Origin: Spirochaetota bacterium
GTDB lineage: Bacteria > Spirochaetota > UBA4802 > UBA5550
Direction of reading: 5' to 3'
NCBI GenBank assembly: GCA_963663865.1
Contig: OY760686.1
Span: 2,240,001 to 2,304,000 of the forward strand
DNA: 64,000 bases
A program made the translations under genes and the position numbers. Under the pieces are notes generated by a model, which was not told the DNA's origin, did no database searches, and saw only the letters and a program-made list of their open reading frames with translations. Below are positions 1,528-52,542 of this stretch, piece by piece; positions within the stretch are counted from its first letter, which is position 1; each line of letters starts with the position of its first letter.

Positions 1528-2851
1528 GAGAGTGTAAAAAGATTTGTGTAAATAGCTATATTATTACTCAATAGATAAGGAGAAAAAATATGGCTATGGA
1601 CAAAGATGCAATAATTAATGAATTGCTGGAAGATGTGGATTTTAAAGCACTGACACCTGAACAGATTACCGGGAAAGACGGCCTTATTCAGCAATTAACC
1701 AAGAGGATTATCGAAACAGCGATGAATGCTGAGATGACAGAACATCTTGGCTACGACAAAAATGAAAGATCAGCAGGTAAAAGCACCAACGCTCGTAATG
1801 GTCGAAGTAGCAAGAAGGTGCTAACAAACAATGGAGAAGTCCTAATTGATATTCCCCGAGATCGTAATGCTGAATTCGAACCCAGAATAGTAAAGAAGCA
1901 TCAAAAACGATTTGAGCTCTTTGACGAGAAAATCATATCGATGTACGGGTTGGGGATGACAACCAGAGATATTCAGGGCCATCTTGAAGATATCTATGGA
2001 GTAGAGGTTTCGCCTGACCTGATCAGCACCGTTACCAATGAGATAATAAAAGATGTTCTGGAATGGCAATCCCGCCCACTTGATCCTGTGTACCCTATAG
2101 TGTATTTTGACGCTATCGTGGTCAAAGGCCGAACTGACGGCAAAGTATCAAATAAATCAGTGTATACGGCTATTGGGGTCAATATGCAGGGCAAAAAAGA
2201 AGTTCTAGGCTTATGGATTGGCGATTCAGAAGGAGCTAAATTTTGGCTTCAGGTTGTAAATGAACTTAAAAATCGAGGAATCGAAGATGTCTTCATCGCT
2301 TGCATGGATGGACTGAAAGGGTTTCCAGATGCGGTTAATGCCGTATTCCCAGAGACCAGGATTCAGCTGTGCATAGTTCATATGATACGCAATTCAATAA
2401 AATATGTATCATGGAAAGAACGAAAGGCGATATGTACCGATCTGAAAAGCATATATTCTGCCCCTTCCGAAAAGGCTGGTTTGGCTTCGCTTGATGAATT
2501 TTCTAAAAAGTGGGATGGTAAATATCCGATGATTTCAAAGTCATGGCGAGCCAATTGGGAAAACCTCAACGAATTTTTCGCTTATCCGGCAGATATTCGA
2601 AAAGCAATTTATACTACCAACGCAATTGAATCCTTGAATTCAAGCCTACGGAAAGTAACCCAGAAAAGAGCGGCATTTCCTACAGATGATTCAATCTTTA
2701 AGGTGCTGTATTTGGCATTGACGAAAGCCGAGAAAAAATGGACTATGCCAATCAGAGATTGGGGTGCTGCTATCAACCAGTTCGCAGTATATTTTGGAGA
2801 CAGAGTACCATTATAATCAAAGGCTATTTACACAAAAGATCTGATACTCTC
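1528..2851 (+). mobile_element. IS256-family insertion sequence with 8-bp target duplication
   Basis: IRs GAGAGTGTAAAAAGATTTGTGTAAATAGC and GCTATTTACACAAAAGATCTGATACTCTC; direct repeat GTTTGAAT at 1520-1527 and 2852-2859. Confidence 0.95.
1590..2816 (+). CDS. IS256 (mutator-type) transposase
   Basis: YPIVYFDAI, DGLKGFPDA, QLCIVHMIRNS and YTTNAIESLN motifs. Confidence 0.95.
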   Translation: MAMDKDAIINELLEDVDFKALTPEQITGKDGLIQQLTKRIIETAMNAEMTEHLGYDKNERSAGKSTNARNGRSSKKVLTNNGEVLIDIPRDRNAEFEPRIVKKHQKRFELFDEKIISMYGLGMTTRDIQGHLEDIYGVEVSPDLISTVTNEIIKDVLEWQSRPLDPVYPIVYFDAIVVKGRTDGKVSNKSVYTAIGVNMQGKKEVLGLWIGDSEGAKFWLQVVNELKNRGIEDVFIACMDGLKGFPDAVNAVFPETRIQLCIVHMIRNSIKYVSWKERKAICTDLKSIYSAPSEKAGLASLDEFSKKWDGKYPMISKSWRANWENLNEFFAYPADIRKAIYTTNAIESLNSSLRKVTQKRAAFPTDDSIFKVLYLALTKAEKKWTMPIRDWGAAINQFAVYFGDRVPL

Positions 2852-2873
2852 GTTTGAATAGCTGATGGCCATG

Positions 2874-3215
2874 TTAAACATCTTCATCTACTATTTCTGT
2901 TCCAACCAAATCTTCAATTACAGTATGACATTCAACATCAAACCATTCCATAAAAAGCTTATAGGTTCTGGGCTTAGGCCATGCGCTTTCGTCTTGGTAC
3001 CAATCGTTTAATTCATTTTCAAAAAAAATATCATAATTTTTCTTTAGCATTTGATCCAGATTTTCGGCAGAATTCTCATCAATCAAATATACCGTTCTTT
3101 CTTCGTTTGTCATTTCTTCTAAAGTAACAATACTATTATCAGATGAGTCGGTACTATTAATCCAATCGATCATTGGTTGTTTATATTTTAATAATAAAGC
3201 TGCACGATTAATCAT
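2874..3215 (-). CDS. Hypothetical protein, gene cassette
   Basis: 113-aa ORF with GGAGGG RBS, bounded by attC-like sites. Confidence 0.75.
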   Translation of the reverse strand: MINRAALLLKYKQPMIDWINSTDSSDNSIVTLEEMTNEERTVYLIDENSAENLDQMLKKNYDIFFENELNDWYQDESAWPKPRTYKLFMEWFDVECHTVIEDLVGTEIVDEDV

Positions 3216-3248
3216 AAACCCTCCCTAAAATAATGCTTCAAACATTAC

Positions 3249-3346
3249 AGACAACGTTTTGCTTATGTGACGTCGCGCGGCCTTTTGCGCGATGTGGCGT
3301 AGCCCGAACGAACGACAGCGAGTGAAGCGCATATGCTTTGTTGTCT
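3249..3346 (-). repeat. attC-like recombination site
   Basis: Minus strand AGACAAC...GTTGTCT; internal sequence nearly identical to the site at 46693-46790. Confidence 0.9.
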
Positions 3347-3363
3347 GCCGTCAAAACCGCATC

Positions 3364-3639
3364 TTACAGAATTTTTATTGATAAATTTTTTCCTAATGCT
3401 TTTGTTACTTTTAATAATGTCGAAAGCTTGATGTCTTCTGAATGATTTTCAATTCTCGAAATTGCACTCTTTGTTGTTTTAATTTTTTTTGCTAATTCTT
3501 CTTGAGTTAAACCGCTTTTTTCTCTTTCTTGTCTTAGGATTAAACCTATCTTGAATTCTTCGAAACCTTCATCGTATCTTTGTGCGAACTCAGGGTCTTT
3601 CGCTTTTCTTTTGGTTATGTATTTTTTCAGATCACTCAT
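3364..3639 (-). CDS. HigA-like XRE HTH antitoxin
   Basis: REKSGLTQEELAKKIKTTKSAISRIEN HTH_3 motif; directly downstream of a RelE-like toxin. Confidence 0.88.
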   Translation of the reverse strand: MSDLKKYITKRKAKDPEFAQRYDEGFEEFKIGLILRQEREKSGLTQEELAKKIKTTKSAISRIENHSEDIKLSTLLKVTKALGKNLSIKIL

Positions 3640-3986
3640 GATTTCCTCCAGTTTAAATAATCATTTCTATAATCTTCTGCTCGTTTAATTTCTGCAGTAG
3701 ATATCTTTTGTGTTTTTTTAATAAGTCCATGTTTAAGAATTATTATAAAACCTTTTTCGAAGAAACAAAATATTCGGTAAATGTTTGAACCTTGTTGAAT
3801 TCGACATTCACAAATGTCCGTATTCACGAGCTTCTTAAAATAAGTTGATTGAAGCATCCCTTAATTTTCTAATAATTCAAGCATCCATGTAATTTTTTGA
3901 ACAACCTTTCCGGGAAGCGAATCAAGAAATTCTTCTACTGGACAGCTTCCATCTTTTGTTTTATAGAATATGATATTTCTTTTCAT
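3636..3986 (-). pseudogene. RelE/HigB (Gp49-like) toxin with in-frame nonsense codon
   Basis: ATG at 3986 gives MKRNIIFYKTKDGSCPVEEFLDSL..., TAA at 3861-3863 (codon 42), then the same frame continues to 3636 (YRIFCFF...HGLIKKTQK). Confidence 0.85.
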
Positions 3987-3992
3987 ACATTC

Positions 3993-4021
3993 ATGTTAGC
4001 ATGCAGGTGAACATTTGTCAA
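3993..4021 (-). promoter_or_regulatory. sigma70-type promoter of the TA cassette with overlapping inverted-repeat operator
   Basis: TTGACA-17 bp-TAACAT on the minus strand; ATGTT...AACAT inverted repeat across the spacer and -10. Confidence 0.65.
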
Positions 4022-4054
4022 TCATTTTCTATGAAAAAATAATGCGGTTCTTAT

Positions 4055-4080
4055 GGCAGACGACTAAAATTATCTGCATT
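4055..4080 (-). other. attI-like site heading the left cassette array
   Basis: Minus strand TGCAGATAATTTTAGTCGTCTGCC versus TGCAGACAATGATAGTTGTGCGCA at the intact integron (13/16 over TGCAGA..TAGT). Confidence 0.55.
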
Positions 4081-42142: not shown

Positions 42143-43117
42143 TTATGGCCTCAGCGCCGCGATGACCTCCCGAGCGACACGCTCACTGTAGCAGCCCGAG
42201 TTCCACCTGCCGGGGCTCCATCCCTTAAGAAATCTGTGGAAGTCCGCCCATGCAACACGGTACATACCCCTCCACTCCCCTTCAAGGGCATCCGCGTCGA
42301 TATCCCTTTTCCGCCGCGCAAGCTGATTTCTCAACTCATCAAAATAGAAGTTGAGGATATCGGCCTCCATTGCTTCGCACTCATCTTCCTGCAGACAGCT
42401 TCCGGCAAAGTATGCGAGGTCCTTCATGCCGCAGCCTCCTCCGGTGTACTGGAAATCAACCGCAGCAGCTTTCAGCCCGTCCTCCGAAAAGCAGAAGTTT
42501 TCAAGCTTCGCGTCTCCGTGCAGCACTGTTTTGAACCGGCAGCTCTGAAGCCTGCTGTCGATCGCGCGGGCCGCGTTTTTCAGCGGGCCGTCCGAAAGCG
42601 CCCTCAGCTCATCGGGCCTTGTATCGAGATGCCAATAGGTCCCGACGCTCCAGAGGCCCTCAGGCTTCCTGCCCATGAAGCAGGCGTGAAACGCAGCCAG
42701 CCATGAGATACAGGCCTTCATCTCCTTCCAGTTTACACTTCCCCGGCGCAGGGTATACCCGGCCTCGTTGAGGTCTTCAAGCACCATTATGAACTCATCG
42801 CCCTGCCAGTCCGAGGCGTAACAGGCGGGTACCCGGCACGCATCATCGCATGAGGACGCCCATTCACGGTAAAAGGCCATCTCAACCCTGTAGGATTTGA
42901 CTTTACGCTGATGTGAAAGTCCGGAACCACCGGAGGTTCTGCCCATTCCGGAAGGAAGCTGAACGTGTTTGACTATTACTGATTTTTGTTCAGAGCCGGT
43001 CAGGCCGCATCGAAAAATCCGGCCATAGCCGCCCCATAGCTCCTGGATTTCATCGATTTCAAAGAGGTCTTCTGGCCCTGTTGACTTTAGCAGAAGAGTG
43101 CGGAAGTGTTTGTTCAT
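42143..43117 (-). CDS. Choline/ecdysteroid kinase-like phosphotransferase
   Basis: HGDAKLENF and VDFQY catalytic motifs. Confidence 0.8.
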
Positions 43118-43202: not shown

Positions 43203-44294
43203 CTACAAAGGACTCCTTATATTATTAAGTGAAGGATTTTTACAATGCGTATAGATTGACGTAGTAGAAAGGTTCTTGTGGCCTAACAGCACCTGGATAT
43301 ATCGAATATCAATACCGTTTTCAAGAAGATGTGTAGCAAAACTATGCCTAAGGCTATGGCATGAGGCCTTTTTTTTGACTCCAGACCTGTAAAGGGCCAT
43401 CCTGAAAACCTGCTGGATTGTTCGCACAGTTAATTTCTTTTTATCATCAGAATGAAAGTTTGAAACAAACAGATAATCCATGGGCCCTTTGTGTTCAATG
43501 TATTCTTGAAGCTGTGATTTAAGAGATTCAGAAAAGATAGTTAACCTGTCTTTTTTCCCTTTTCCCTGATTTATCCTGATATTCAGGTTTTCCAGATTGA
43601 TGTCACCTGCCCTTAGATTCACAACCTCGGAAACTCTAAGCCCGGCAGAATATAATAGAGAAATCATTAGCCTGTGTTTTAGATTATTAATTGATTTAAT
43701 AATCTTCAGGACCTCGTTTCTTGTTAATATCTGCGGCAATCCCTTCTCTTTCTTTATCCCATTCATGAAAGAGATATCAATATCTCTGTGCAAGACTTCA
43801 CGAAAATAGAAGAGAAGCGCAAAGCGGTAAATTCTAATCGATGACACAGACACTTTTCTTGTATCAGTCAGATAAAGAAAATATTTATACATATCTGCAG
43901 AGGTAACAGATTCAATTGAAAGATTACATTGAGAATGAAAAAATCCGGCTATCTGAACAAGAGCACCGGAATAATTCTTTAGCGTTTTTGGACTATATCG
44001 TTTCAGCTTCATAAGCTCACAGAATCTGTCATAACCAGAAATCAGATTAGTTACCTGTCGGCGGTCAGGTATACCGGACGTTTTTGTAATGCCTATATCT
44101 TCCAGCATTTTATTGAAAATATAACGGCTTACATTATGGGAATTATAGTAATCCCGAATTAGTTCGATAAACCGGGTATTTTGAGTAATACTTTTACTCA
44201 CAAAAAAGCTGTAAATTTCGCTATTACTGATATACCTGAATGATTTATTGTATTCCCTTTCCATTTCAGTCAGCAGTTTCAAATATTCGTCCAT
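43203..44294 (-). CDS. Integron-associated tyrosine recombinase lacking the IntI-specific insertion
   Basis: SAM-like YSPKTLKNY, GLRVSE, GKGKKDR, HSLRHSFATHLLE, LGH, IYTH and IntI-like C-terminal RSPL; transcribed away from the cassette array. Confidence 0.9.
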   Translation of the reverse strand: MDEYLKLLTEMEREYNKSFRYISNSEIYSFFVSKSITQNTRFIELIRDYYNSHNVSRYIFNKMLEDIGITKTSGIPDRRQVTNLISGYDRFCELMKLKRYSPKTLKNYSGALVQIAGFFHSQCNLSIESVTSADMYKYFLYLTDTRKVSVSSIRIYRFALLFYFREVLHRDIDISFMNGIKKEKGLPQILTRNEVLKIIKSINNLKHRLMISLLYSAGLRVSEVVNLRAGDINLENLNIRINQGKGKKDRLTIFSESLKSQLQEYIEHKGPMDYLFVSNFHSDDKKKLTVRTIQQVFRMALYRSGVKKKASCHSLRHSFATHLLENGIDIRYIQVLLGHKNLSTTSIYTHCKNPSLNNIRSPL

Positions 44295-44417
44295 ATCTTA
44301 TCCTCCAACTTAAGCTTAACCGAATATTTTATGCAGTTTGTCTTACTTTTTTGAATTATTTACGAATATTAATTGATTTTTATATATTTTTAAGCTGAGA
44401 ATGTTAAATGAAATTTT

Positions 44418-44443
44418 TGTGCAGACAATGATAGTTGTGCGCA
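44418..44443 (+). other. attI-like site; core GTTGTGC at 44434
   Basis: First cassette starts GTTGTGCGCA, the reverse complement of its end TGCGCACAAC (45858-45867). No attC stem upstream; 140 bp from the integrase start. Confidence 0.75.
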
Positions 44444-44469
44444 ATTTTTAAAATAATATCAGGTGTACT

Positions 44470-45354
44470 ATGAGCAGAAAACCAGGAAGATATTATGTAC
44501 ATAGAGTTTCTAAAATTGGTGATGTACCTGTTGAAAAAATATTAGATTCTATTATTAATTCAACATACATTCACTATAATAGCTACAAGTTTGCTTTTAC
44601 GGGTACTATATTAGAAGAAGATTATATTTTTTCATTCTTAACTAAATATTATCCTGAAGATGAAGTAACTATCGTTGACGAGTCAACATCACATATTGAA
44701 CAGAAAAAACAAGAAATTAAAAATTTGGTTAAAGCTGTTTGTCCATTTATTTTTATACCGAAAAAATCAATAATTGCTCATTTACATGTATGGAATGAAA
44801 TTACACCAGAAAATTTTGCCAAAATATTTCCAGTGCTACATGATGTTAAGCATAACACTATGTTCAGTGAAATAGTCATTGAACCTATTGCTGATTTAGA
44901 AGCATTTCTTAATAAACTTACAAAGATGACAGAAATTTCAAAAATAAAATCACGAATATATCCGTCAAATCCTCATTATAGTAAATATTGGAAGCTCCTT
45001 GATGAGTATTTAAAAAAGAGAAATGTCCAAGAAATGAATCTTTCTGAAGAATCAAAACTGGGTGGTTTAAAAACCCCGTTAGTTGAGGCAACGCAAAAAA
45101 TTCTAGATAATGAAGACATCCATGACATAGAAGACCTAAATTTAATTGAAATAAGTGTAATCATGGCTACAGATGGGTATGGCAATTCTGAAATACAAGG
45201 AAAGATCGATGGAGTTGAAGAAGCTATTTTTACAAACAAGAGTAATTTTACCTTTTTATTTGAGAAAGAACCATCTCATGAATTATTATACAAGAAAGTC
45301 GAAAAAATAGTAAAAAGAATTGAAAAGGAAAGGGGACTTCTCAGTGATGAATAA
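44470..45354 (+). CDS. Cassette 1 gene A, DUF4747-like hypothetical protein
   Basis: 294 aa; PSNP and DGYG motifs recalled from DUF4747-like proteins (not verified). Confidence 0.55.
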   Translation: MSRKPGRYYVHRVSKIGDVPVEKILDSIINSTYIHYNSYKFAFTGTILEEDYIFSFLTKYYPEDEVTIVDESTSHIEQKKQEIKNLVKAVCPFIFIPKKSIIAHLHVWNEITPENFAKIFPVLHDVKHNTMFSEIVIEPIADLEAFLNKLTKMTEISKIKSRIYPSNPHYSKYWKLLDEYLKKRNVQEMNLSEESKLGGLKTPLVEATQKILDNEDIHDIEDLNLIEISVIMATDGYGNSEIQGKIDGVEEAIFTNKSNFTFLFEKEPSHELLYKKVEKIVKRIEKERGLLSDE

Positions 45355-45841
45355 TAAATTAATCCTCTTTTTTAGAGAATTTTTTTTATCATTTGATTTT
45401 ATTGTTTTTTTGATTTCGATGCTTGTTGTTATAATTAACAAATTAGACATTGAGTTTTTTGAAATATTTTACAGATTTATACTAACAGACAATAAAATAC
45501 TCTCAATTTCAATAATTGTTGTCTTCCATGTCTCAATATTATTTTATTGCATAAAGGCATACAATATGATTTTATTTCCCGATGATAAATTTAATAAGAT
45601 ATTAATTGAATTTGAGTTTTACGATGAATTAAAAATTACAGCATTGGTTTCTATACTAGAACCAGTGATTGCAATATTGATTATGCTTTATTTGCTGATT
45701 TTTGATCTTCAAACAATTATAACAAATAAAGCTATTTTGATCCTTGGGTTAGTATTTTATTCTTTGGTAGACTCAATTACTACTTTTTTTGCACAAAATA
45801 AAATTAAAGAATCACTTTATAAATTTGATCCATATGAATAA
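45347..45841 (+). CDS. Cassette 1 gene B, 4-TM membrane protein
   Basis: Four hydrophobic segments; ATGAATAA overlap with gene A. Confidence 0.75.
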   Translation: MNNKLILFFREFFLSFDFIVFLISMLVVIINKLDIEFFEIFYRFILTDNKILSISIIVVFHVSILFYCIKAYNMILFPDDKFNKILIEFEFYDELKITALVSILEPVIAILIMLYLLIFDLQTIITNKAILILGLVFYSLVDSITTFFAQNKIKESLYKFDPYE

Positions 45842-45860
45842 CATAACTTTTAAAAACTGC

Positions 45861-46021
45861 GCACAACAAATCGTAACAGCTCCGGTCCTCAAGCAGCAGA
45901 GCTGCTTTCCGGTCCTCGGCCTGACGGCACATTGCATTTTGTCACGGATTTGTGCGTTCGCACAAACCGCGCCAACTGGCTAAAGCCAGACATGCAACGT
46001 CAGTTACGATAAACGTTATAT
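45861..46021 (+). repeat. attC-like site 1 (161 bp)
   Basis: GCACAAC...ATCGTAAC/GTTACGAT...GTTATAT. Confidence 0.88.
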
Positions 46022-46045
46022 GAAAGACGGGCTAAATTTATTAAG

Positions 46046-46669
46046 GTGTACACAATGAATGATGGTATAAAAGCATTCTATGATGCAACTGCGAAATTTA
46101 CAGCAGATGAATGGTATCCTAACGATTTATTATTGCCAACCATTGCTGATTTTATTTCTGTATTAACAAAAAAACCGTTGGTGCTTGATCTTGGATGTGG
46201 TCCTGGACATGAAAGTAAAAGATTATCAAAGGCTGGTGCAATTGTCACAGGAATAGATTTTAGTGAAGAATGTATTGATATAGCGAAGCAGAGAAGCCCA
46301 GAGTGTAATTTTGTAGTAGGGGATATCAGATCTCTGACTAAAGATATTGGAATTTTTGATGGGATATTTGCTTGTGCATCATTGATACATTTTCCTATGG
46401 ACGAATTATCATTCGTTTTTAAAAGCATTAATGCTATTCTTAAATATAATGGTTATTTAAACATAATAATATTAGATGGTGAAGGAGTAAGTAAAAAGTA
46501 TAGTAATTTAGAATTTGAAGGTAAAAAATATAATAGAACCGTATATCTTTATAGTAAAGATTTTATTATAAATGAGGCTGTGCAACAAGGTTTTTCATTT
46601 GTTCGTGAAGGATTTCTTGAAGAAGAATTGAAGGAATATGACTGGAGAAATTATTTATTTAAAAAATAA
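46046..46669 (+). CDS. Cassette 2, class I SAM-dependent methyltransferase
   Basis: VLDLGCGPG and FDGIFACASLIH motifs. Confidence 0.9.
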   Translation: MYTMNDGIKAFYDATAKFTADEWYPNDLLLPTIADFISVLTKKPLVLDLGCGPGHESKRLSKAGAIVTGIDFSEECIDIAKQRSPECNFVVGDIRSLTKDIGIFDGIFACASLIHFPMDELSFVFKSINAILKYNGYLNIIILDGEGVSKKYSNLEFEGKKYNRTVYLYSKDFIINEAVQQGFSFVREGFLEEELKEYDWRNYLFKK

Positions 46670-46692
46670 TTTATTCTATTAGCCCGTCCTTC

Positions 46693-46790
46693 ATATAACA
46701 AAGCTTATGCGCTTCACTCGCTTTCGCTCGTTCGGGCTTCGCCAAATCGCGCAAAAGGCCGCGCAACGTCGTTTAGCCAAGACGTTAGGC
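46693..46790 (+). repeat. attC-like site 2 (98 bp)
   Basis: ATATAAC...GTTAGGC; near-identical to 3249-3346 in the opposite orientation. Confidence 0.9.
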
Positions 46791-46818
46791 GACATGACGC
46801 ACTTTAATTATTGGAGGT

Positions 46819-47748
46819 ATGAACTTGTCACTTTTAAGGGATATTCAAGATGCAGCAATAAATTCTGGAATTGAAATTTCAACTGTTTTGCGCAAGTGTA
46901 AAGTTCTATCTGCCCGACTTGGCAATAGTGAATTTAAAAGATGGGTTGATCAAGAATTGAATGGTTACGAAAGTATCGATGATTTACCAAGTTATCGTAT
47001 TTTAACTGTCCAATCAAAAGGACATTTCTCAGGCCCCTTTGGTAGTGGCATAAAGAATGGTGATATACCCTTAATCTGCTTACCTAAAGAATTAAGAGAA
47101 TCTTTAAGCAAAGCTTATTGTACTCAACCAATTTCAGCCTATGAAGCATTAATAAAATCATCAAAAGGCGATAATTTTCAAGAACAATGGCCACCCGATT
47201 TAGTTGCATTATATGGTGGTGAAATTTATCAGAACATGAGCTGCATGACAGCATGGAAAACAATTCCTTATGGATTAATAGTTGCATTAATTGATACTGT
47301 TAGAAATCGAGTTTTGAATTTTGTAATAGAACTAGAATCTGAATCACCTGATGCAGGTGAATCACCAATCAATAAACCATCAATATCACGGGATAAAATT
47401 GCACATGTTTTCAATACTACCATATATGGAAATGTCGGAAATATTGCAGATGGAAGCTCAAATATAAATCAAACTGCAACATTAAATGTTCACAAAGATG
47501 ATCTTTCAAGTTTAAGGACAGAACTAGGAAAACTTGGGATACCTCAAGCAGAACTTGATGAATTAGAAATATCAATCAAAGCTGATGATAAAAAAGAAGT
47601 AATAAAAAATAAAAATCTTGGTTTACAAGTTACTAATTGGCTTGGTGGATTATTTACTAAATCGGCCAAAGGAGTTATTCCTGTACTTCAGGGACTAACT
47701 GCAAATATGATTACAAAAGCTTTATTTTTATATTATGGAATTGAATGA
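46819..47748 (+). CDS. Cassette 3, AbiTii-like domain protein
   Basis: N-terminal LLRDIQDAAI..ISTVLRKCKVLSARL...WVDQELNGY..LPSYR matches the AbiTii-like pattern. Confidence 0.75.
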   Translation: MNLSLLRDIQDAAINSGIEISTVLRKCKVLSARLGNSEFKRWVDQELNGYESIDDLPSYRILTVQSKGHFSGPFGSGIKNGDIPLICLPKELRESLSKAYCTQPISAYEALIKSSKGDNFQEQWPPDLVALYGGEIYQNMSCMTAWKTIPYGLIVALIDTVRNRVLNFVIELESESPDAGESPINKPSISRDKIAHVFNTTIYGNVGNIADGSSNINQTATLNVHKDDLSSLRTELGKLGIPQAELDELEISIKADDKKEVIKNKNLGLQVTNWLGGLFTKSAKGVIPVLQGLTANMITKALFLYYGIE

Positions 47749-47761
47749 AGTGCGTCACGTC

Positions 47762-47905
47762 GCCTAACACGGCGTCATGCGCTTCGTCGCTGCGCTCCTC
47801 GGCCTCCTCGGCCTCCGCGCCCAAGATATGAAGACGGGCGCTCCGGCACATTTTCACCTCCGCTGCGCTAAGGTGAAAACGTCGTATACGCCGGTGGCGT
47901 TATAT
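47762..47905 (+). repeat. attC-like site 3 (144 bp)
   Basis: GCCTAAC, CGGCGT(C)ATGCG/CGTATACGCCG stem with a bulged C, GTTATAT. Confidence 0.9.
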
Positions 47906-47987
47906 GAAATGCGGCTTAACAGATTTTAAAGATCCGGCCATCCATGGCCGGTTATAAATAAATCAACTCTATATTTAGAGGAAAATT

Positions 47988-48572
47988 ATGTCAAAAAATG
48001 AAATAATTATTAAGCTGTTATCAATGTTATTCGAAAGAAATGAAGCATATCACGATCAAAAAGAAAAAATGATTCATGCTGGAGTTTTAATCGAAATTGG
48101 TTTATTAACTGGAATCACATCCTTAAATAAACTTCCATTTGACTGTATTAGTTTAAATATTATAATATTTATTTTATTATGGCTTATCATTTATTCTTTC
48201 ATTCGATTCCATTCTCTTTATAAAAGAACTGCTGCAGTTTATCGTATAGCATATGAACGAGCTCTATGGTTGTGTTATAATGATTCACCAAAAAATAATA
48301 ATACTAAACTTAACAAGAAAAAAAATGAAAGTAAATTATCAAAGACAAAAATAATTCTATCGTTTCTATTCCCATTCTATAATGATAATTTGTTTTTAGA
48401 TTCAGATGTAACAAAAGCAGAACGTAATAATGCATATTATTCAAATTTCTTTTATGAAATTTTAGATAAATCAAGAAATGAACATGTTGGAGCAACTAAT
48501 TATGAAGTTATAATTTCCATAGGAAGTATAATAATTTTAATTATAGGAATAATAAAAATTGTATTATTTTAA
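47988..48572 (+). CDS. Cassette 4, hypothetical membrane protein
   Basis: GAGG RBS; two N-terminal and one C-terminal TM segments. Confidence 0.7.
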   Translation: MSKNEIIIKLLSMLFERNEAYHDQKEKMIHAGVLIEIGLLTGITSLNKLPFDCISLNIIIFILLWLIIYSFIRFHSLYKRTAAVYRIAYERALWLCYNDSPKNNNTKLNKKKNESKLSKTKIILSFLFPFYNDNLFLDSDVTKAERNNAYYSNFFYEILDKSRNEHVGATNYEVIISIGSIIILIIGIIKIVLF

Positions 48573-48642
48573 AATATTTTTCTTTAATATTAGCTCGTAC
48601 ATCCGTGTACTCGCTAACTATGTGCTACAAGCGCCGCACTTC

Positions 48643-48776
48643 ATATAACACGGCGTCATGCGCTTCGTCGCTGCGCTCCTCGGCCTCCGCGCCCACAATA
48701 TGAAGACGGGCGCTCTGGCACATTTTCACCTTCGCTGCGCTGCGGTGAAAACGTCGCATACGCCGGAACGTTATGC
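48643..48776 (+). repeat. attC-like site 4 (134 bp)
   Basis: ATATAAC...GTTATGC; near-identical to site 3. Confidence 0.9.
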
Positions 48777-48815
48777 GAAAGAGCCCGTTGAACTTTTTTA
48801 TAAAAGGAGACTAAT

Positions 48816-49439
48816 TTGAGTCAATATATAATTGTTGGGAATACAAGGTATTTTTGTGAGAAAACAATTGATTGCTACGAAAATCTTCTCCGCCTTGATA
48901 AACAGTTACATGAAGAAAAAGAACGAAAATCTCGCGATGACGCAATTTATGATGATTTCGAATTAAGTTTTAAGGAGGGACGATTAGCAAAGGATTTATT
49001 AAAAGAAAAGATGTCTATGATCGTTTTTGCTTCGTTTACGATTGAATCATATATTAACGGATACGCAATATACAGTCTAGGAAATAAATATTTTGAAGAT
49101 CATTTAGAAAAAATAAATATTAAAAATAAATGGATTGTATTTCCAAAACTAATTTGTGGTTCAGATTTTCCAAAAGACAAGAAAAGCTGGAATTTACTTG
49201 ATAAATTAATTGATAACAGAAATAAATTAGCACATGATAAACCAAAACGAATTAAGGTTGATGAAATTGATTCATTAAAAAGGAATACTAAAGTAAAACA
49301 TATTTCACCAAGTGAAATTATTGATGCTTTTTATGAACTACAGAAAGATTTAATCTCAATCGATGAAAGCATATCTGAATATTTAATGATTGATGGGTAT
49401 AATAATAAAAGGATTGAAAAATTAAAAAAATCTTCTTAA
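48816..49439 (+). CDS. Cassette 5, HEPN-like protein
   Basis: IESYIN helix and RNKLAH (RxxxxH) motif; AGGAG RBS with TTG start. Confidence 0.6.
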   Translation: MSQYIIVGNTRYFCEKTIDCYENLLRLDKQLHEEKERKSRDDAIYDDFELSFKEGRLAKDLLKEKMSMIVFASFTIESYINGYAIYSLGNKYFEDHLEKINIKNKWIVFPKLICGSDFPKDKKSWNLLDKLIDNRNKLAHDKPKRIKVDEIDSLKRNTKVKHISPSEIIDAFYELQKDLISIDESISEYLMIDGYNNKRIEKLKKSS

Positions 49440-49456
49440 TAATTACGGGCTCCATC

Positions 49457-49575
49457 GGACAACAAAGCTTACACGCTGCGTCGCTATCGGTCCTTGGCAC
49501 TCGCCTTGAGAAGCATGCTCGGCAAATTGGCTTCCCTTACGCTTCGCCGACTTCGTGTAGCCGCGGGCGTTAGGC
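49457..49575 (+). repeat. attC-like site 5 (119 bp)
   Basis: GGACAAC, GCT(T)ACACG/CGTGTAGC stem with a bulged T, GTTAGGC. Confidence 0.85.
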
Positions 49576-49596
49576 GCAATATCAATTGGAGAAGAA

Positions 49597-50097
49597 ATGA
49601 TTCGAGAAGCAATATTATCTGACTCAAATGTAATAGCTGAAATAATTGTAGAGACTTGGCAAAAATCGTTTATTAATATAATTGATCAGAATTACATAGA
49701 GAGCATGGATGTACAACGGTTTGTCAACATAATGAAGGATAATATACAATTGAATAAAGAAATTATATTTGTGTATGAGGAAAATGAAATAATTAAAGGT
49801 TTTATCTCAGGTAAAATCACAGAATATTCTGACCACCAGTGTGAAATAGTTGGTTTTTATATTTTGCCCAAGTATCAACGAATGGGGATTGGCAAAATAT
49901 TATTTCAACAAATTATAGAATATTTTTCTAGGCATAATTATAAAAAAATGATTCTTTGGACTTTGAATAGTGCAAAAAATAATTCATTCTATAAGAATAA
50001 TGGTGGAGAAATTACTGATAAAAAAATATTGGAGATTGGTGGTAAGACGTACGATGGAATAGGATTTTCATTTAATCTTCCCCCTATTTCCAATTGA
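49597..50097 (+). CDS. Cassette 6, GNAT acetyltransferase
   Basis: YILPKYQRMGIGKILF acetyl-CoA motif and FYKNNGG. Confidence 0.9.
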   Translation: MIREAILSDSNVIAEIIVETWQKSFINIIDQNYIESMDVQRFVNIMKDNIQLNKEIIFVYEENEIIKGFISGKITEYSDHQCEIVGFYILPKYQRMGIGKILFQQIIEYFSRHNYKKMILWTLNSAKNNSFYKNNGGEITDKKILEIGGKTYDGIGFSFNLPPISN

Positions 50098-50103
50098 TAC
50101 AGC

Positions 50104-50183
50104 GCCTAACAGAGAATAGGCGTTTCCGCTTCGCTTAACCCAAATTGGCCTGTGGCCAACTTCGTTTAGCCAGGACGTTATAC
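50104..50183 (+). repeat. attC-like site 6 (80 bp)
   Basis: GCCTAAC...TTGGCC hairpin...CGTTTAGCCAGGAC-GTTATAC; 3' part matches site 2. Confidence 0.8.
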
Positions 50184-50234
50184 GAAATCCGGCAAAACTT
50201 AATTGTGGCACTTTTAACAGAAAAAGGGAACTAA

Positions 50235-50843
50235 ATGAAAGCAAGTGTAATTTTAGCACATCCATACTCTCAGAGCTTCAATCATGCAATATATCAGGCA
50301 GTATGCTCAAAACTTGAGAGTCTGAATATTGAAGTATTTAAACATGATCTATATCAGGAACAATTTAGTCCTATACTTACCGTTGAAGAATTAGGATCGG
50401 ATACTTCAACCGATATTCTTGTAAATCAATATGCATCAGAATTAATGGAATCAACCTTTATTTTTTTTATTCATCCAAATTGGTGGGGACAACCTCCTGC
50501 AATTTTAAAAGGCTATATTGACCGCGTAATTCGTCCACCATATTCATATGATTTCCCAACCGGAGATTCCGGAGGTGGTCTTCCTGTCGGAAAATTGAAA
50601 GGGAAATATGGTATTGTTTTAAATACATCTAATACTGAAGAGGAAAGAGAAAATAATTACTTTAACGATCCGTTGGAAAATATATGGAAACAATGTGTTT
50701 TTGGGTTCTGCGGAATAGAAAAATATTATAGAAAAATGCTTCGAATTATAGCTGATAGCACTTTGGAACAAAGAAATAAATGGATTATAGAAATTAAAGA
50801 AGTAGTTGAAAATGTTATCGGTAATTCGCTGGACATCGCATAA
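50235..50843 (+). CDS. Cassette 7, NAD(P)H dehydrogenase (quinone), flavodoxin-like
   Basis: LAHPYSQSFNHAI and HPNWWGQPPAILKGYIDRV motifs; stop codon lies within R''. Confidence 0.88.
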   Translation: MKASVILAHPYSQSFNHAIYQAVCSKLESLNIEVFKHDLYQEQFSPILTVEELGSDTSTDILVNQYASELMESTFIFFIHPNWWGQPPAILKGYIDRVIRPPYSYDFPTGDSGGGLPVGKLKGKYGIVLNTSNTEEERENNYFNDPLENIWKQCVFGFCGIEKYYRKMLRIIADSTLEQRNKWIIEIKEVVENVIGNSLDIA

Positions 50844-50915
50844 CTAGGGATATATTCGACGGCTTCGCCACATTTTTGTGTTGCAAAAACTGATCATATA
50901 CCTGAAACTTTATAG
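50838..50915 (+). repeat. Degenerate attC-like site 7
   Basis: GCATAAC...GGCTTCGCCACATT...AAAC-TTTATAG (GTT core apparently mutated to TTT). Confidence 0.6.
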
Positions 50916-51108
50916 TCAAATGCCCAGCCCCCGTCGGAATGAAATATATTGAAAAACAACTGTCATTCATGCCAGTTGAAACTTAAAGTATTGTTCAGAT
51001 TAAAGAAAGTGACGTTTAAGTGAATATATTAACCTTATTGTGGAATGAATTTTTAATAATTTGTTGATCAACGGCAATGAAAATGCAATTTTATAAAGGA
51101 GGAAAGGT

Positions 51109-51588
51109 ATGTTGAAAATAATCGCTATGGTCGCTTTGCTAATCATGATTTCGGGGCTTTTGATTGCTGGAGATACCGTTGTTAAGGATAACGGCAAGCA
51201 GCCATGGGTGGTCGACATCGAAGATCTGACAGAAAAAAATGAAAATTTCCGTACCTCTCAGTGGACAGGTCGGAACCTTCAGATGACCGTCATGTCGCTT
51301 AAGCCGGGTGAGGAAATAGGATTAGAAAAGCATGACAAGAACGATCAGTTCATCCGTGTTGAAAAAGGGAATGCCCGTGTTGTTATGGGCGTGTCGAAAG
51401 ATAAAATGACTTTCGACAAAAGAGTTTCAGATGACTGGGCTATTTTTATCCCAAGCGGTTTCTGGCACAATATTACCAACGAAGGTGATAAACCGCTCAA
51501 GGTTTACGTTATTTACGCTCCACCAGAGCACCCCGCTGGAACATTGCACAAGACTTTCAAGGAATCGGAAGCTGCTCATGGTCATTGA
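51109..51588 (+). CDS. Cupin-domain protein with signal peptide
   Basis: MSLKPGEEIGLEKH..DQFIRVEKG, WHNITN and YAPPEHP motifs. Confidence 0.88.
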   Translation: MLKIIAMVALLIMISGLLIAGDTVVKDNGKQPWVVDIEDLTEKNENFRTSQWTGRNLQMTVMSLKPGEEIGLEKHDKNDQFIRVEKGNARVVMGVSKDKMTFDKRVSDDWAIFIPSGFWHNITNEGDKPLKVYVIYAPPEHPAGTLHKTFKESEAAHGH

Positions 51589-51681
51589 CCGTGGAGGAGT
51601 GAACAGCCATTGACAAAGGACTGCAAGTGATAAAAAAACGTTGCCCAATAAGGCTTTGTCGAGATTTTTGCGAAGGCAGAA

Positions 51682-51738
51682 TACCAACCAATCGACTACT
51701 CTGACCGCCCAACTCCGTATAGTCGTGAAATGTTGGAA
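51682..51738 (+). repeat. Short attC-like site candidate
   Basis: TACCAAC-caat-CGACTA...TAGTCG-tgaaat-GTTGGAA. Confidence 0.45.
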
Positions 51739-51842
51739 ATAGTCGCCAATGTTTTTTTGGGTAAGAAGAATCCTATACCGTGTCAGATAAAGAAAGAAAT
51801 ACTGCCATTTTTATGCTATAACAAACAATGATGTTGGTATAA

Positions 51843-52187
51843 ATGAAGATTCTCAATAAAGCCCCCTTTCAAAATATAATAGATTTTATTGATGTAACCG
51901 TGGACTCTGAAGATTTGATGAACTGGCTCGTTAAATTAGAATATTTACCCAATAATCTCCGCCATGATCATATTATCCGAATGAGACAACGAATGATAGA
52001 AAATGGAGAAGCGGAAATTTTGATTGATATTCTAAATTTGATTAATAATCGAGATATCTTATCCGCTATTAATCTTGTAGTGAAAGATGTTTATCATTCT
52101 TGTATTCGCAACGATCACACCAGCTTAATGGTCTTTTGTAAAAGATATGGGAAAAATGATCCGTTTTTAAATAATAGAGTAATTTAA
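51843..52187 (+). CDS. Hypothetical protein (possibly decayed cassette)
   Basis: ORF between attC-like remnants. Confidence 0.5.
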   Translation: MKILNKAPFQNIIDFIDVTVDSEDLMNWLVKLEYLPNNLRHDHIIRMRQRMIENGEAEILIDILNLINNRDILSAINLVVKDVYHSCIRNDHTSLMVFCKRYGKNDPFLNNRVI

Positions 52188-52225
52188 TGGTCATAGTGAA
52201 ATAATATAATAAGATCAATATCTTC

Positions 52226-52323
52226 GCACAACAAAGGTTGGCTGCTCCATCCTGGCGTTGTCGCAAAGCCGCATTGCGTCTTCGGCCTGAGTTTGCCACT
52301 CTTTTTTGAACACACAGTTAAGC
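52226..52323 (+). repeat. Degenerate attC-like site
   Basis: GCACAAC...TTCGGCCTGA...GTTAAGC with weak inner pairing. Confidence 0.45.
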
Positions 52324-52350
52324 AATAATTATTGGAAGAGTTAATAAGTT

Positions 52351-52542
52351 ATGGACGGTAGAAATCGCAGCAACATAAACCAGGGCAAAAAAGTATCCAT
52401 AGTCTTGAAAAAGGATCAGCGGAACGGGAAATTAACCGAAGGTACTGTAAAAGACATTTTAACAAACGCAGCAACACATCCACATGGCATAAAGGTGAGA
52501 CTCGAATCGGGAGATGTTGGAAGAGTAAAGATTATCCATTAA
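52351..52542 (+). CDS. YwbE-family small protein
   Basis: IVLKKDQRNGKLTEGTVKDILT..HPHGIKVRL..GDVGRV. Confidence 0.88.
   Translation: MDGRNRSNINQGKKVSIVLKKDQRNGKLTEGTVKDILTNAATHPHGIKVRLESGDVGRVKIIH

Follow-up and report, generated by a model that had tools for sequence, protein, structure and literature searches.

Can a gene cassette array be served by a tyrosine recombinase that lacks the additional domain of integron integrases (IntI)? This question is raised by a locus from a Spirochaetota bacterium (UBA4802; UBA5550; GCA_963663865.1, contig OY760686.1, 2,240,001-2,304,000 of the forward strand), analyzed here as a window of 64,000 nucleotides (nt); positions are window coordinates unless prefixed by a genome or locus label (G307, L011 etc.). 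The additional domain, helix I2, is held to be both defining and necessary for integron integrase activity, a view attributed to Messier and Roy 2001 in papers that cite it; IntegronFinder is described as requiring the domain, and the archaeal IntIs of Ghaly et al. 2022 are, in the text concerned, defined by it. The locus is very probably a sedentary integron of the chromosome, with an integrase from a distinct clade in which the IntI-specific helix I2 either was never present or has been lost. It consists of an integrase gene on the minus strand, a putative attI, and seven cassettes on the plus strand, of which six have a complete attC and one a truncated attC; the original prediction of an integron layout, with a divergent recombinase, an attI-like core and cassettes separated by AAC...GTT palindromes, is therefore seen at the locus. 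The host genome is a single contig of 3.16 Mb (98% complete), and the window integrase is its only IntI-like gene.

The integrase is a 363 aa protein with a Phage_int_SAM_4 domain at residues 88-173 and a Phage_integrase domain at residues 189-351, the same domain set as in Xer proteins (XerA, XerC/D). The inferred catalytic residues are R220, K248, H313, R316, H339, and Y348; all are invariant across 20 aligned homologues except H313, which is found in at least 90%. The C-terminus reads ..IRSPL, an ..SPL ending that is typical of IntIs and absent from the host's own Xer-like proteins. The best match among solved structures is the integron integrase VchIntIA (2a3v, E 6.5e-16); XerA structures were also matched. 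When aligned to VchIntIA (IntI4) by HMMER the protein breaks in two, with residues 93-266 opposite chain positions 11-181 and residues 291-363 opposite 245-317; helix I2, the insertion near patch III, is absent, since only 24 residues stand opposite 63 in VchIntIA between the β-hairpin lysine and the HxxR motif, a deficit of ~39 residues relative to IntI1 and VchIntIA. The stretch from GKGKKDR to DYLF, put at about 21 residues in the original prediction, counts 22, and the catalytic lysine lies 65 residues from the HxxR histidine. Across 126 related sequences this K-to-H spacing is bimodal, at 103-104 in 39 canonical IntIs and 61-68 in 87 I2-less proteins with none between, and the window integrase falls in the spacing class of Xer. 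An AlphaFold2 (AF2) model (mean predicted local distance difference test score, pLDDT, 85.8) has no helix between H256-266 and H290, the interval of I2.

IntI-specific hidden Markov models had been expected to miss this protein, and it does fall below their thresholds: it scores 204.1 against a cut-off of 265 for TIGR02249 and 143.5 against 435 for NF011946. A canonical IntI with I2 present was rejected on these scores, on the 24 versus 63 residues, and on the K-to-H spacing of 65 versus 103; a canonical IntI elsewhere in the host was also looked for, and a profile search of the one-contig genome gave no TIGR02249 match above the cut-off. The integrase carries an N-terminal domain that IntI1 and VchIntIA do not have, and the predicted extension of ~85 aa is real, the SAM-like domain starting only at residue 88; AF2 models it confidently as four helices (pLDDT 82-92 over residues 1-60), and it is conserved in 20/20 aligned homologues. 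It is, however, limited to the spirochaete-type family, and relatives from the Candidate Phyla Radiation (CPR), Firmicutes, and DPANN are without it. No Pfam match was found in the extension before residue 88, and an Atlas feature search with it gave leads of at most 0.87, none reaching 0.9.

The integrase gene is divergent from a run of same-strand open reading frames (ORFs), and the intergenic stretches of this run, each with ..AAC at its start and GTT.. at its end, have a G+C content of 0.45-0.54 versus ~0.30 in the ORFs. The putative attI was located at 44434 because the start of cassette 1 is complementary there to the flank of attC1 at 19/20 positions; its crossover G is found 140 nt upstream of the start of the integrase gene. 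In this site a pair of R-type arms, inverted with respect to each other, flanks the 6 bp that separate the symmetric cut positions, and the site therefore has the form of a classical duplex core site. The motif CAGACAAT-N4-GTT is common to the attI of the window and those of two relatives (L116 and L122), and the crossover is 140-203 nt from the integrase start in six loci. The first cassette is joined at the G/TT of the putative attI. Complementarity of cassette ends would be expected if cassettes are circles opened at G/TT; in 6/6 window cassettes the 20 nt that follow GTT can pair at 15-19 positions with the 20 nt ahead of the next AAC, and the ends are swapped exactly at G/TT, as in canonical integrons. 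One contig, from a related strain with 12 differences, stops at 44432, two bases short of the inferred crossover, which is suggestive only.

The cassettes are mostly single-ORF, and their gene content is typical of chromosomal integrons: a methyltransferase, AbiTii, a weakly HEPN-like protein, a GNAT, a flavodoxin-like oxidoreductase, and three ORFs without a family. Cassettes of one ORF with such genes (methyltransferase, GNAT, Abi, toxin-antitoxin) are a trait shared with canonical integrons. Of the at least seven cassettes originally predicted, six are complete, and the seventh holds in part: its attC is truncated, with no L'/R' half found, and the attC flank matches the cassette start at 15/20 positions. 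The predicted end of the array at 52542 lies beyond the demonstrable cassettes; the genes between 50870 and 52542 (a cupin, a 114 aa ORF, and DUF2196) are not shown to be cassettes. A degenerate attC-like stretch in this interval has no matching 3' half and is unmatched by R1, the covariance model described below; a 63 aa DUF2196 gene (52351-52542, +), whose status as a cassette is not shown, stands just beyond it. The features are listed in the table.

Table. Features of the integron locus. attC coordinates run from AAC to GTT; cassettes 1-6 end at the G of the terminal GTT of attC1-attC6.
Feature	Position	Strand	Description
I2-less integron integrase	43203..44294	-	363 aa tyrosine recombinase ORF
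N-terminal extension, residues 1-87	44034..44294	-	four predicted helices, conserved motif PKYISNxEI
attI core (putative)	44422..44445	+	R''-like arm (CAGACAAT), 4-nt spacer, R' arm beginning GTT; crossover G 44434
Cassette 1	44435..46015	+	two ORFs without Pfam family (44470-45354, 45320-45841); attC1 45865-46017
Cassette 2	46016..46784	+	SAM-dependent methyltransferase (46046-46669); attC2 46697-46786
Cassette 3	46785..47899	+	AbiTii abortive-infection protein (46819-47748); attC3 47766-47901
Cassette 4	47900..48770	+	194 aa ORF without Pfam family (47988-48572); attC4 48647-48772
Cassette 5	48771..49569	+	207 aa ORF, weak HEPN-like matches below Pfam cut-off (48816-49439); attC5 49461-49571
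Cassette 6	49570..50177	+	GNAT acetyltransferase (49597-50097); attC6 50108-50179, atypical, long '' side loop
Cassette 7	50178..~50870	+	flavodoxin-like oxidoreductase (50235-50843); only R'' half of attC, 50834-50844
Degenerate attC-like stretch	52222..52297	+	R'' consensus C..C....AAC then AA

The attCs are imperfect palindromes with R''/L''/L'/R' boxes and the AAC...GTT ends. Minimum free energy folds of whole attCs were inconsistent for long sites, and a box-level alignment and a covariance model, R1, built from the window's own six attCs were therefore used; the six score 60-126 bits, and attC statistics were taken from 60 aligned attCs from 19 sources (alignment A3). AAC and GTT are invariant (59/59), as in canonical integrons. 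Compensatory changes are found at 8/9 L-box pairs, and 96.1% of cells are paired, whereas sliding the partner leaves no more than 38.6%; 145 changes are double-sided versus 39 in shuffles, and 0/500 shuffles attain the observed count. An uninterrupted duplex makes up the L box of 44/60 attCs, a single extra base is seen in about 11, and the central loop has 2 nt on the '' side (60/60) and 4-6 nt on the ' side (58/60). The R arm is long (~20 bp across the cassette ends) and partly sequence-specific, with conserved C at -8 (60/60), G at +8 (58/59), C at -11 (60/60), and A at +11 (59/59). Among 36 cassettes from loci of nine relatives, 35 have ends that agree at no fewer than 16 of 20 positions, and inspection by eye shows A against G at position 11 in every one of the 36, which gives an A.C mismatch in the folded top strand and a G.T wobble in the folded bottom strand. 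The bottom strand gives the more stable fold, a feature shared with canonical integrons; the predicted difference has a mean of 6.1 kcal/mol and holds for 28/28 reconstituted sites, and the same bias is predicted in 27/28 in-array sites. attC3 and attC4 are near-copies, and each holds an ORF of ~50 aa starting MRFVAALLGL (47777-47929 and 48658-48819, +); these ORFs are probably a by-product of the repeat rather than genes.

This anatomy sets the family apart from canonical attCs, as its sites are mostly without an extrahelical base, have the invariant A.C/G.T at position 11, and have a loop of 2 versus 4-6 nt. Canonical core sites are 7 nt long, and the two cassettes that could be paired in L147, a canonical array from this phylum, match by eye over 7-8 nt only, versus a complementarity of ~17-22 nt here. 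The suggestion in the original prediction that sites may be recognized differently would fit these features, namely the lack of a conserved extrahelical base, the long R arm, and the position-11 wobble.

The association of integrase and array recurs among relatives. Full-length homologues, 38-54% identical with the N-terminal extension included, are common in metagenomes, and where named by their source they are recombinases of Spirochaetota or Leptospiraceae metagenome-assembled genomes (MAGs). In a phylum sample of 401 genomes, 39 of them from the bacterial family of the window, a homologue (E at most 1e-60) is present in 29, one copy each, and in 22 of the 39 family genomes. R1 places attCs on the expected side and strand of the homologue in 17/28 relatives, with as many as 14 matches in L119 and 16 in L124; in 16/28 the integrase 5' end lies no more than 1.5 kb from a contig end, as would be expected where repeated or variable arrays break short-read assemblies. 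The model finds 63 matches in 236 kb around the window integrase family and 3 (E at most 1) in 1.03 Mb around 80 other Xer/IntI-like genes, a control that measures specificity for window-type attCs, other attC types at those loci being outside its reach. Canonical IntIs above the cut-off occur in 42/401 phylum genomes and in 2/39 family genomes, both of which also have the I2-less gene; none was found in 26 of the 28 homologue-bearing relatives. Relatives have arrays of different content and of different length (2-35 matches). The array of L119 has a tandem pair of identical 402-nt cassettes (reverse-complement coordinates 2483-3286), an arrangement that suggests recent duplication by recombination.

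Genomes of the family without the window-type integrase often have large arrays, and a second I2-less type exists in the family. In G307, a single contig, at least 35 attCs of the same architecture extend over ~96 kb (G307:C1:4328799-4424949), and the integrase beside it (in locus L149, G307:C1:4412000-4430000) is a 356 aa protein with a core identity of 39% to the window integrase. Here the integrase is co-oriented with the cassettes, the first of which begins 71 nt past its stop codon; the same layout is seen in L020, L017, and L014. The G307 array also contains repeated cassettes of ~250 nt without an ORF. An I2-less integrase of either type is present in 48/61 family genomes, and attC matches are found in 34 of these 48 versus 4 of the 13 genomes without one; the related genomes are not independent, and no statistical test was applied to this comparison. 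Outside the Spirochaetota, a Firmicutes MAG (L011:1-5200) has five attCs ~1 kb apart with the same extended-arm design, which by the family's asymmetric consensus are divergent from the integrase and which have two mismatches (positions 10-11) versus one in the window type. A single attC stands at the contig end of L047, the R'-arm consensus lies ~125 nt upstream of the integrase in L012, and several CPR contigs stop at or just past GTT. Direct repeats upstream of two DPANN relatives (L019 and L050) and of L016 form no attC-like family, and a motif scan there found none.

The two Xer-like proteins of the host served as the root of the phylogenetic trees, and the I2 columns were left out automatically, as they are filled in less than 50% of rows. 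In a 112-row quick tree canonical IntI is recovered with a Shimodaira-Hasegawa approximate likelihood ratio (SH-aLRT) of 100, and its joint clade with the I2-less group with 96; the latter group comprises the window family, five CPR-type, two DPANN, and one Firmicutes MAG. A careful tree gives 100/100 for canonical IntI, 98 and 100 being the lower and higher values for the window family (100/98), 99/92 for the I2-less clade, and 92/94 for the two as sisters. The window protein thus stands outside a monophyletic IntI clade, as a member of its sister group and not nested within it. The co-oriented type branches outside the pair of IntI and I2-less clade, where the deeper nodes are weak. A single gain of I2 on the IntI stem would be the most parsimonious course, because the outgroups are I2-less.

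The locus shares with canonical integrons the divergent int-attI-cassette layout, the G/TT crossover, and the R''-L''...L'-R' boxes. From Xer it is set apart by the patchy occurrence of the I2-less integrases in the phylum and family, and by the array beside them; because of this distribution, this neighborhood, and the other Xer-like genes of the host, the enzyme is probably not housekeeping. Treponema-type "reverse" integrons belong to the same phylum (family f21 of the sample is taken to be Treponema), and the second I2-less type resembles them in the co-orientation of integrase and cassettes. The window integrase differs from them, being divergent from its array and I2-less; the phylum integrases above the TIGR02249 cut-off keep the spacing of 103 and therefore carry I2. 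The text of Wu et al. 2013 names Treponema as the sole spirochaete clade with integrons. By the logic of IntegronFinder (PF00589 plus intI_Cterm) the window array would probably be labeled a cluster of attC sites lacking an integron integrase (CALIN). The main text of Cury et al. 2016 (PMC4889954) describes 50 PF00589-only recombinases near attCs, among them four intermediates between IntI and Xer, which had fewer than three attCs each and were judged not to be IntI; going by these descriptions, the present integrases are set apart by the arrays of 6-35 attCs that recur with them. No description of I2-less integrons was found in the open-access literature, a scope that leaves aside subscription papers and supplements, and relatives may be among the entries of supplementary figure S1 and the tables of PMC4889954; within that literature the I2-less integron is a variant without a published description.

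The proposed mechanism starts from duplex recognition. The enzyme would recognize the 12-nt R-arm consensus (GTTRTNYGMMAT) as a duplex; in attI this arm would be presented as the two inverted arms around the 6-bp crossover region, and in attC it would be formed upon folding of the bottom strand. The folded bottom strand is expected to be a near-perfect duplex composed of the R arm, the asymmetric central loop (2 versus 4-6 nt), and a 10-bp L arm, and because the hairpins are nearly perfect duplexes, the enzyme could hold the folded attC in the manner of a usual Xer-type core site, with no contacts between I2 and extrahelical bases. The choice of strand may be made through the asymmetry of the loop and the invariant G.T wobble (A.C in the top strand) at a distance of 11 nt from the crossover. 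On the model of IntI and XerCD, a single strand exchange would then take place, its product being resolved by replication; XerCD acts on the folded single-stranded attP of CTX phage by a one-strand exchange, and is a precedent for an I2-less enzyme that exchanges one strand of a folded single strand. It is a more tentative proposal, with slightly less than an even chance of being right, that cassette capture at folded attCs is older than helix I2, two I2-less groups, the sister group of IntI and the more distant co-oriented type, serving arrays with long R arms and a position-11 wobble instead of extrahelical bases.

Three other explanations of the locus were weighed. The array could be a CALIN beside an unrelated Xer- or phage-type recombinase, its cassettes having been moved in trans by a canonical IntI; Cury et al. 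2016 (PMC4889954) so concluded, in the text concerned, for attC-adjacent tyrosine recombinases without intI_Cterm, and the window protein narrowly passes the archaeal XerA model NF040815 (221.3 against a cut-off of 220, by 1.3 bits). This is highly improbable given a complete genome without the canonical IntI that would be needed, the same lack in nearly all homologue-bearing relatives (counted above), a conserved synteny of integrase, attI, and array with the crossover distances given above, and separate Xer-like genes in the host that do not have the ..SPL end. The integrase could instead be the decayed remnant of an IntI, without the I2 it once had, and the array an immobile fossil, a reading that draws on an activity that is inferred only, on the truncated and degenerate distal attCs, and on the identical array present in contigs from three studies (public runs). 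Against this reading, which we consider very unlikely, stand the intact frames and the catalytic residues conserved in 20 aligned homologues of 38-53% identity, the exclusion of the I2-less clade from a monophyletic canonical IntI, the differing content and length of arrays among relatives, the duplicated cassette of L119, lone cassettes at secondary sites (see below), and the ~20-nt end complementarity kept in 35/36 cassettes. Somewhat less improbable, though still unlikely, is an active enzyme that works on double-stranded sites by two ordinary strand exchanges, with hairpins that serve, e.g., transcription termination or cassette genesis. I2-less Xer-type enzymes do normally act on duplex DNA, and attI looks like a site for such an enzyme; the L' and R' boxes of attC, however, are not mutual inverted repeats, which leaves the duplex attC without a symmetrical core, the stems covary in structure and not in sequence, and both the position-11 asymmetry and the bottom-strand bias (28/28) exist in folded single strands only.

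Several observations also count against an active I2-less integron sister to IntI, beside the marginal XerA score. No recombination was observed; contigs from public runs break at attCs, but contigs can show neither excision nor expression. A promoter scan for the cassette promoter Pc gave 3 sigma-70-like sites near attI versus 2.0 +/- 1.3 in shuffles, which is not above chance. Similarity to the query was the basis on which sequences for the trees were chosen, and in a 74-row quick tree the sister grouping reaches an SH-aLRT of only 82. As R1 comes from the window's own attCs and A3 was fitted to R1, the pair counts lean towards structure. Four of the six window attCs (attC2-attC5) carry one extra T in the L box; the lack of an extrahelical base is a feature of the family and is not strict in the window. 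Lastly, 14 of the 48 integrase-bearing family genomes have no attC match and 4 of the 13 integrase-less ones do; most of the discordant genomes are fragmented or 68-73% complete, as are three of the four integrase-less, attC-positive ones in the latter respect.

An integron with an I2-less integrase bears on the origin of integrons. Passages of Escudero et al. 2016 describe I2 and extrahelical bases as co-evolved, present their relationship as a chicken-and-egg paradox, and call for intermediary forms; a conserved, apparently functional I2-less clade that is sister to IntI would make this question of I2 and attC origin testable at the bench, and would suggest an alternative recognition of folded DNA. 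Should capture indeed be older than I2, the I2-less integrases would be the "functional intermediary forms" for that problem, and many integrase-less CALINs would in fact be complete integrons. Such a clade would also imply that integron surveys undercount complete integrons in Spirochaetota, and probably in CPR and other poorly sampled groups, and would widen the set of structure-specific recombinases usable as tools.

Other features of the window lie outside the array. Directly downstream of the integrase gene is a gene for a 324 aa EcKL/APH-type kinase (42143-43117, -) with a G+C content of 0.55 versus 0.30-0.37 in its neighbors; no attC stands beside it, and the gene may be horizontally acquired. 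The host genome has four lone attCs away from the array, one at 3243-3352 (-) of the window and the others at C1:640212, C1:981335, and C1:1702367, and their positions point to off-site insertions. The lone attC of the window (53.6 bits) is very like attC2 and lies behind genes for a Gp49-like toxin and an HTH_3 antitoxin. Upstream, the sequence agrees imperfectly with that expected of a cassette start, and the unit (3243-4062, -) has the look of a lone cassette that was integrated at a site other than attI. Adjoining it is a gene for a Mutator-family (IS256-like) transposase (1590-2816, +; Pfam Transposase_mut, E 1.6e-123).

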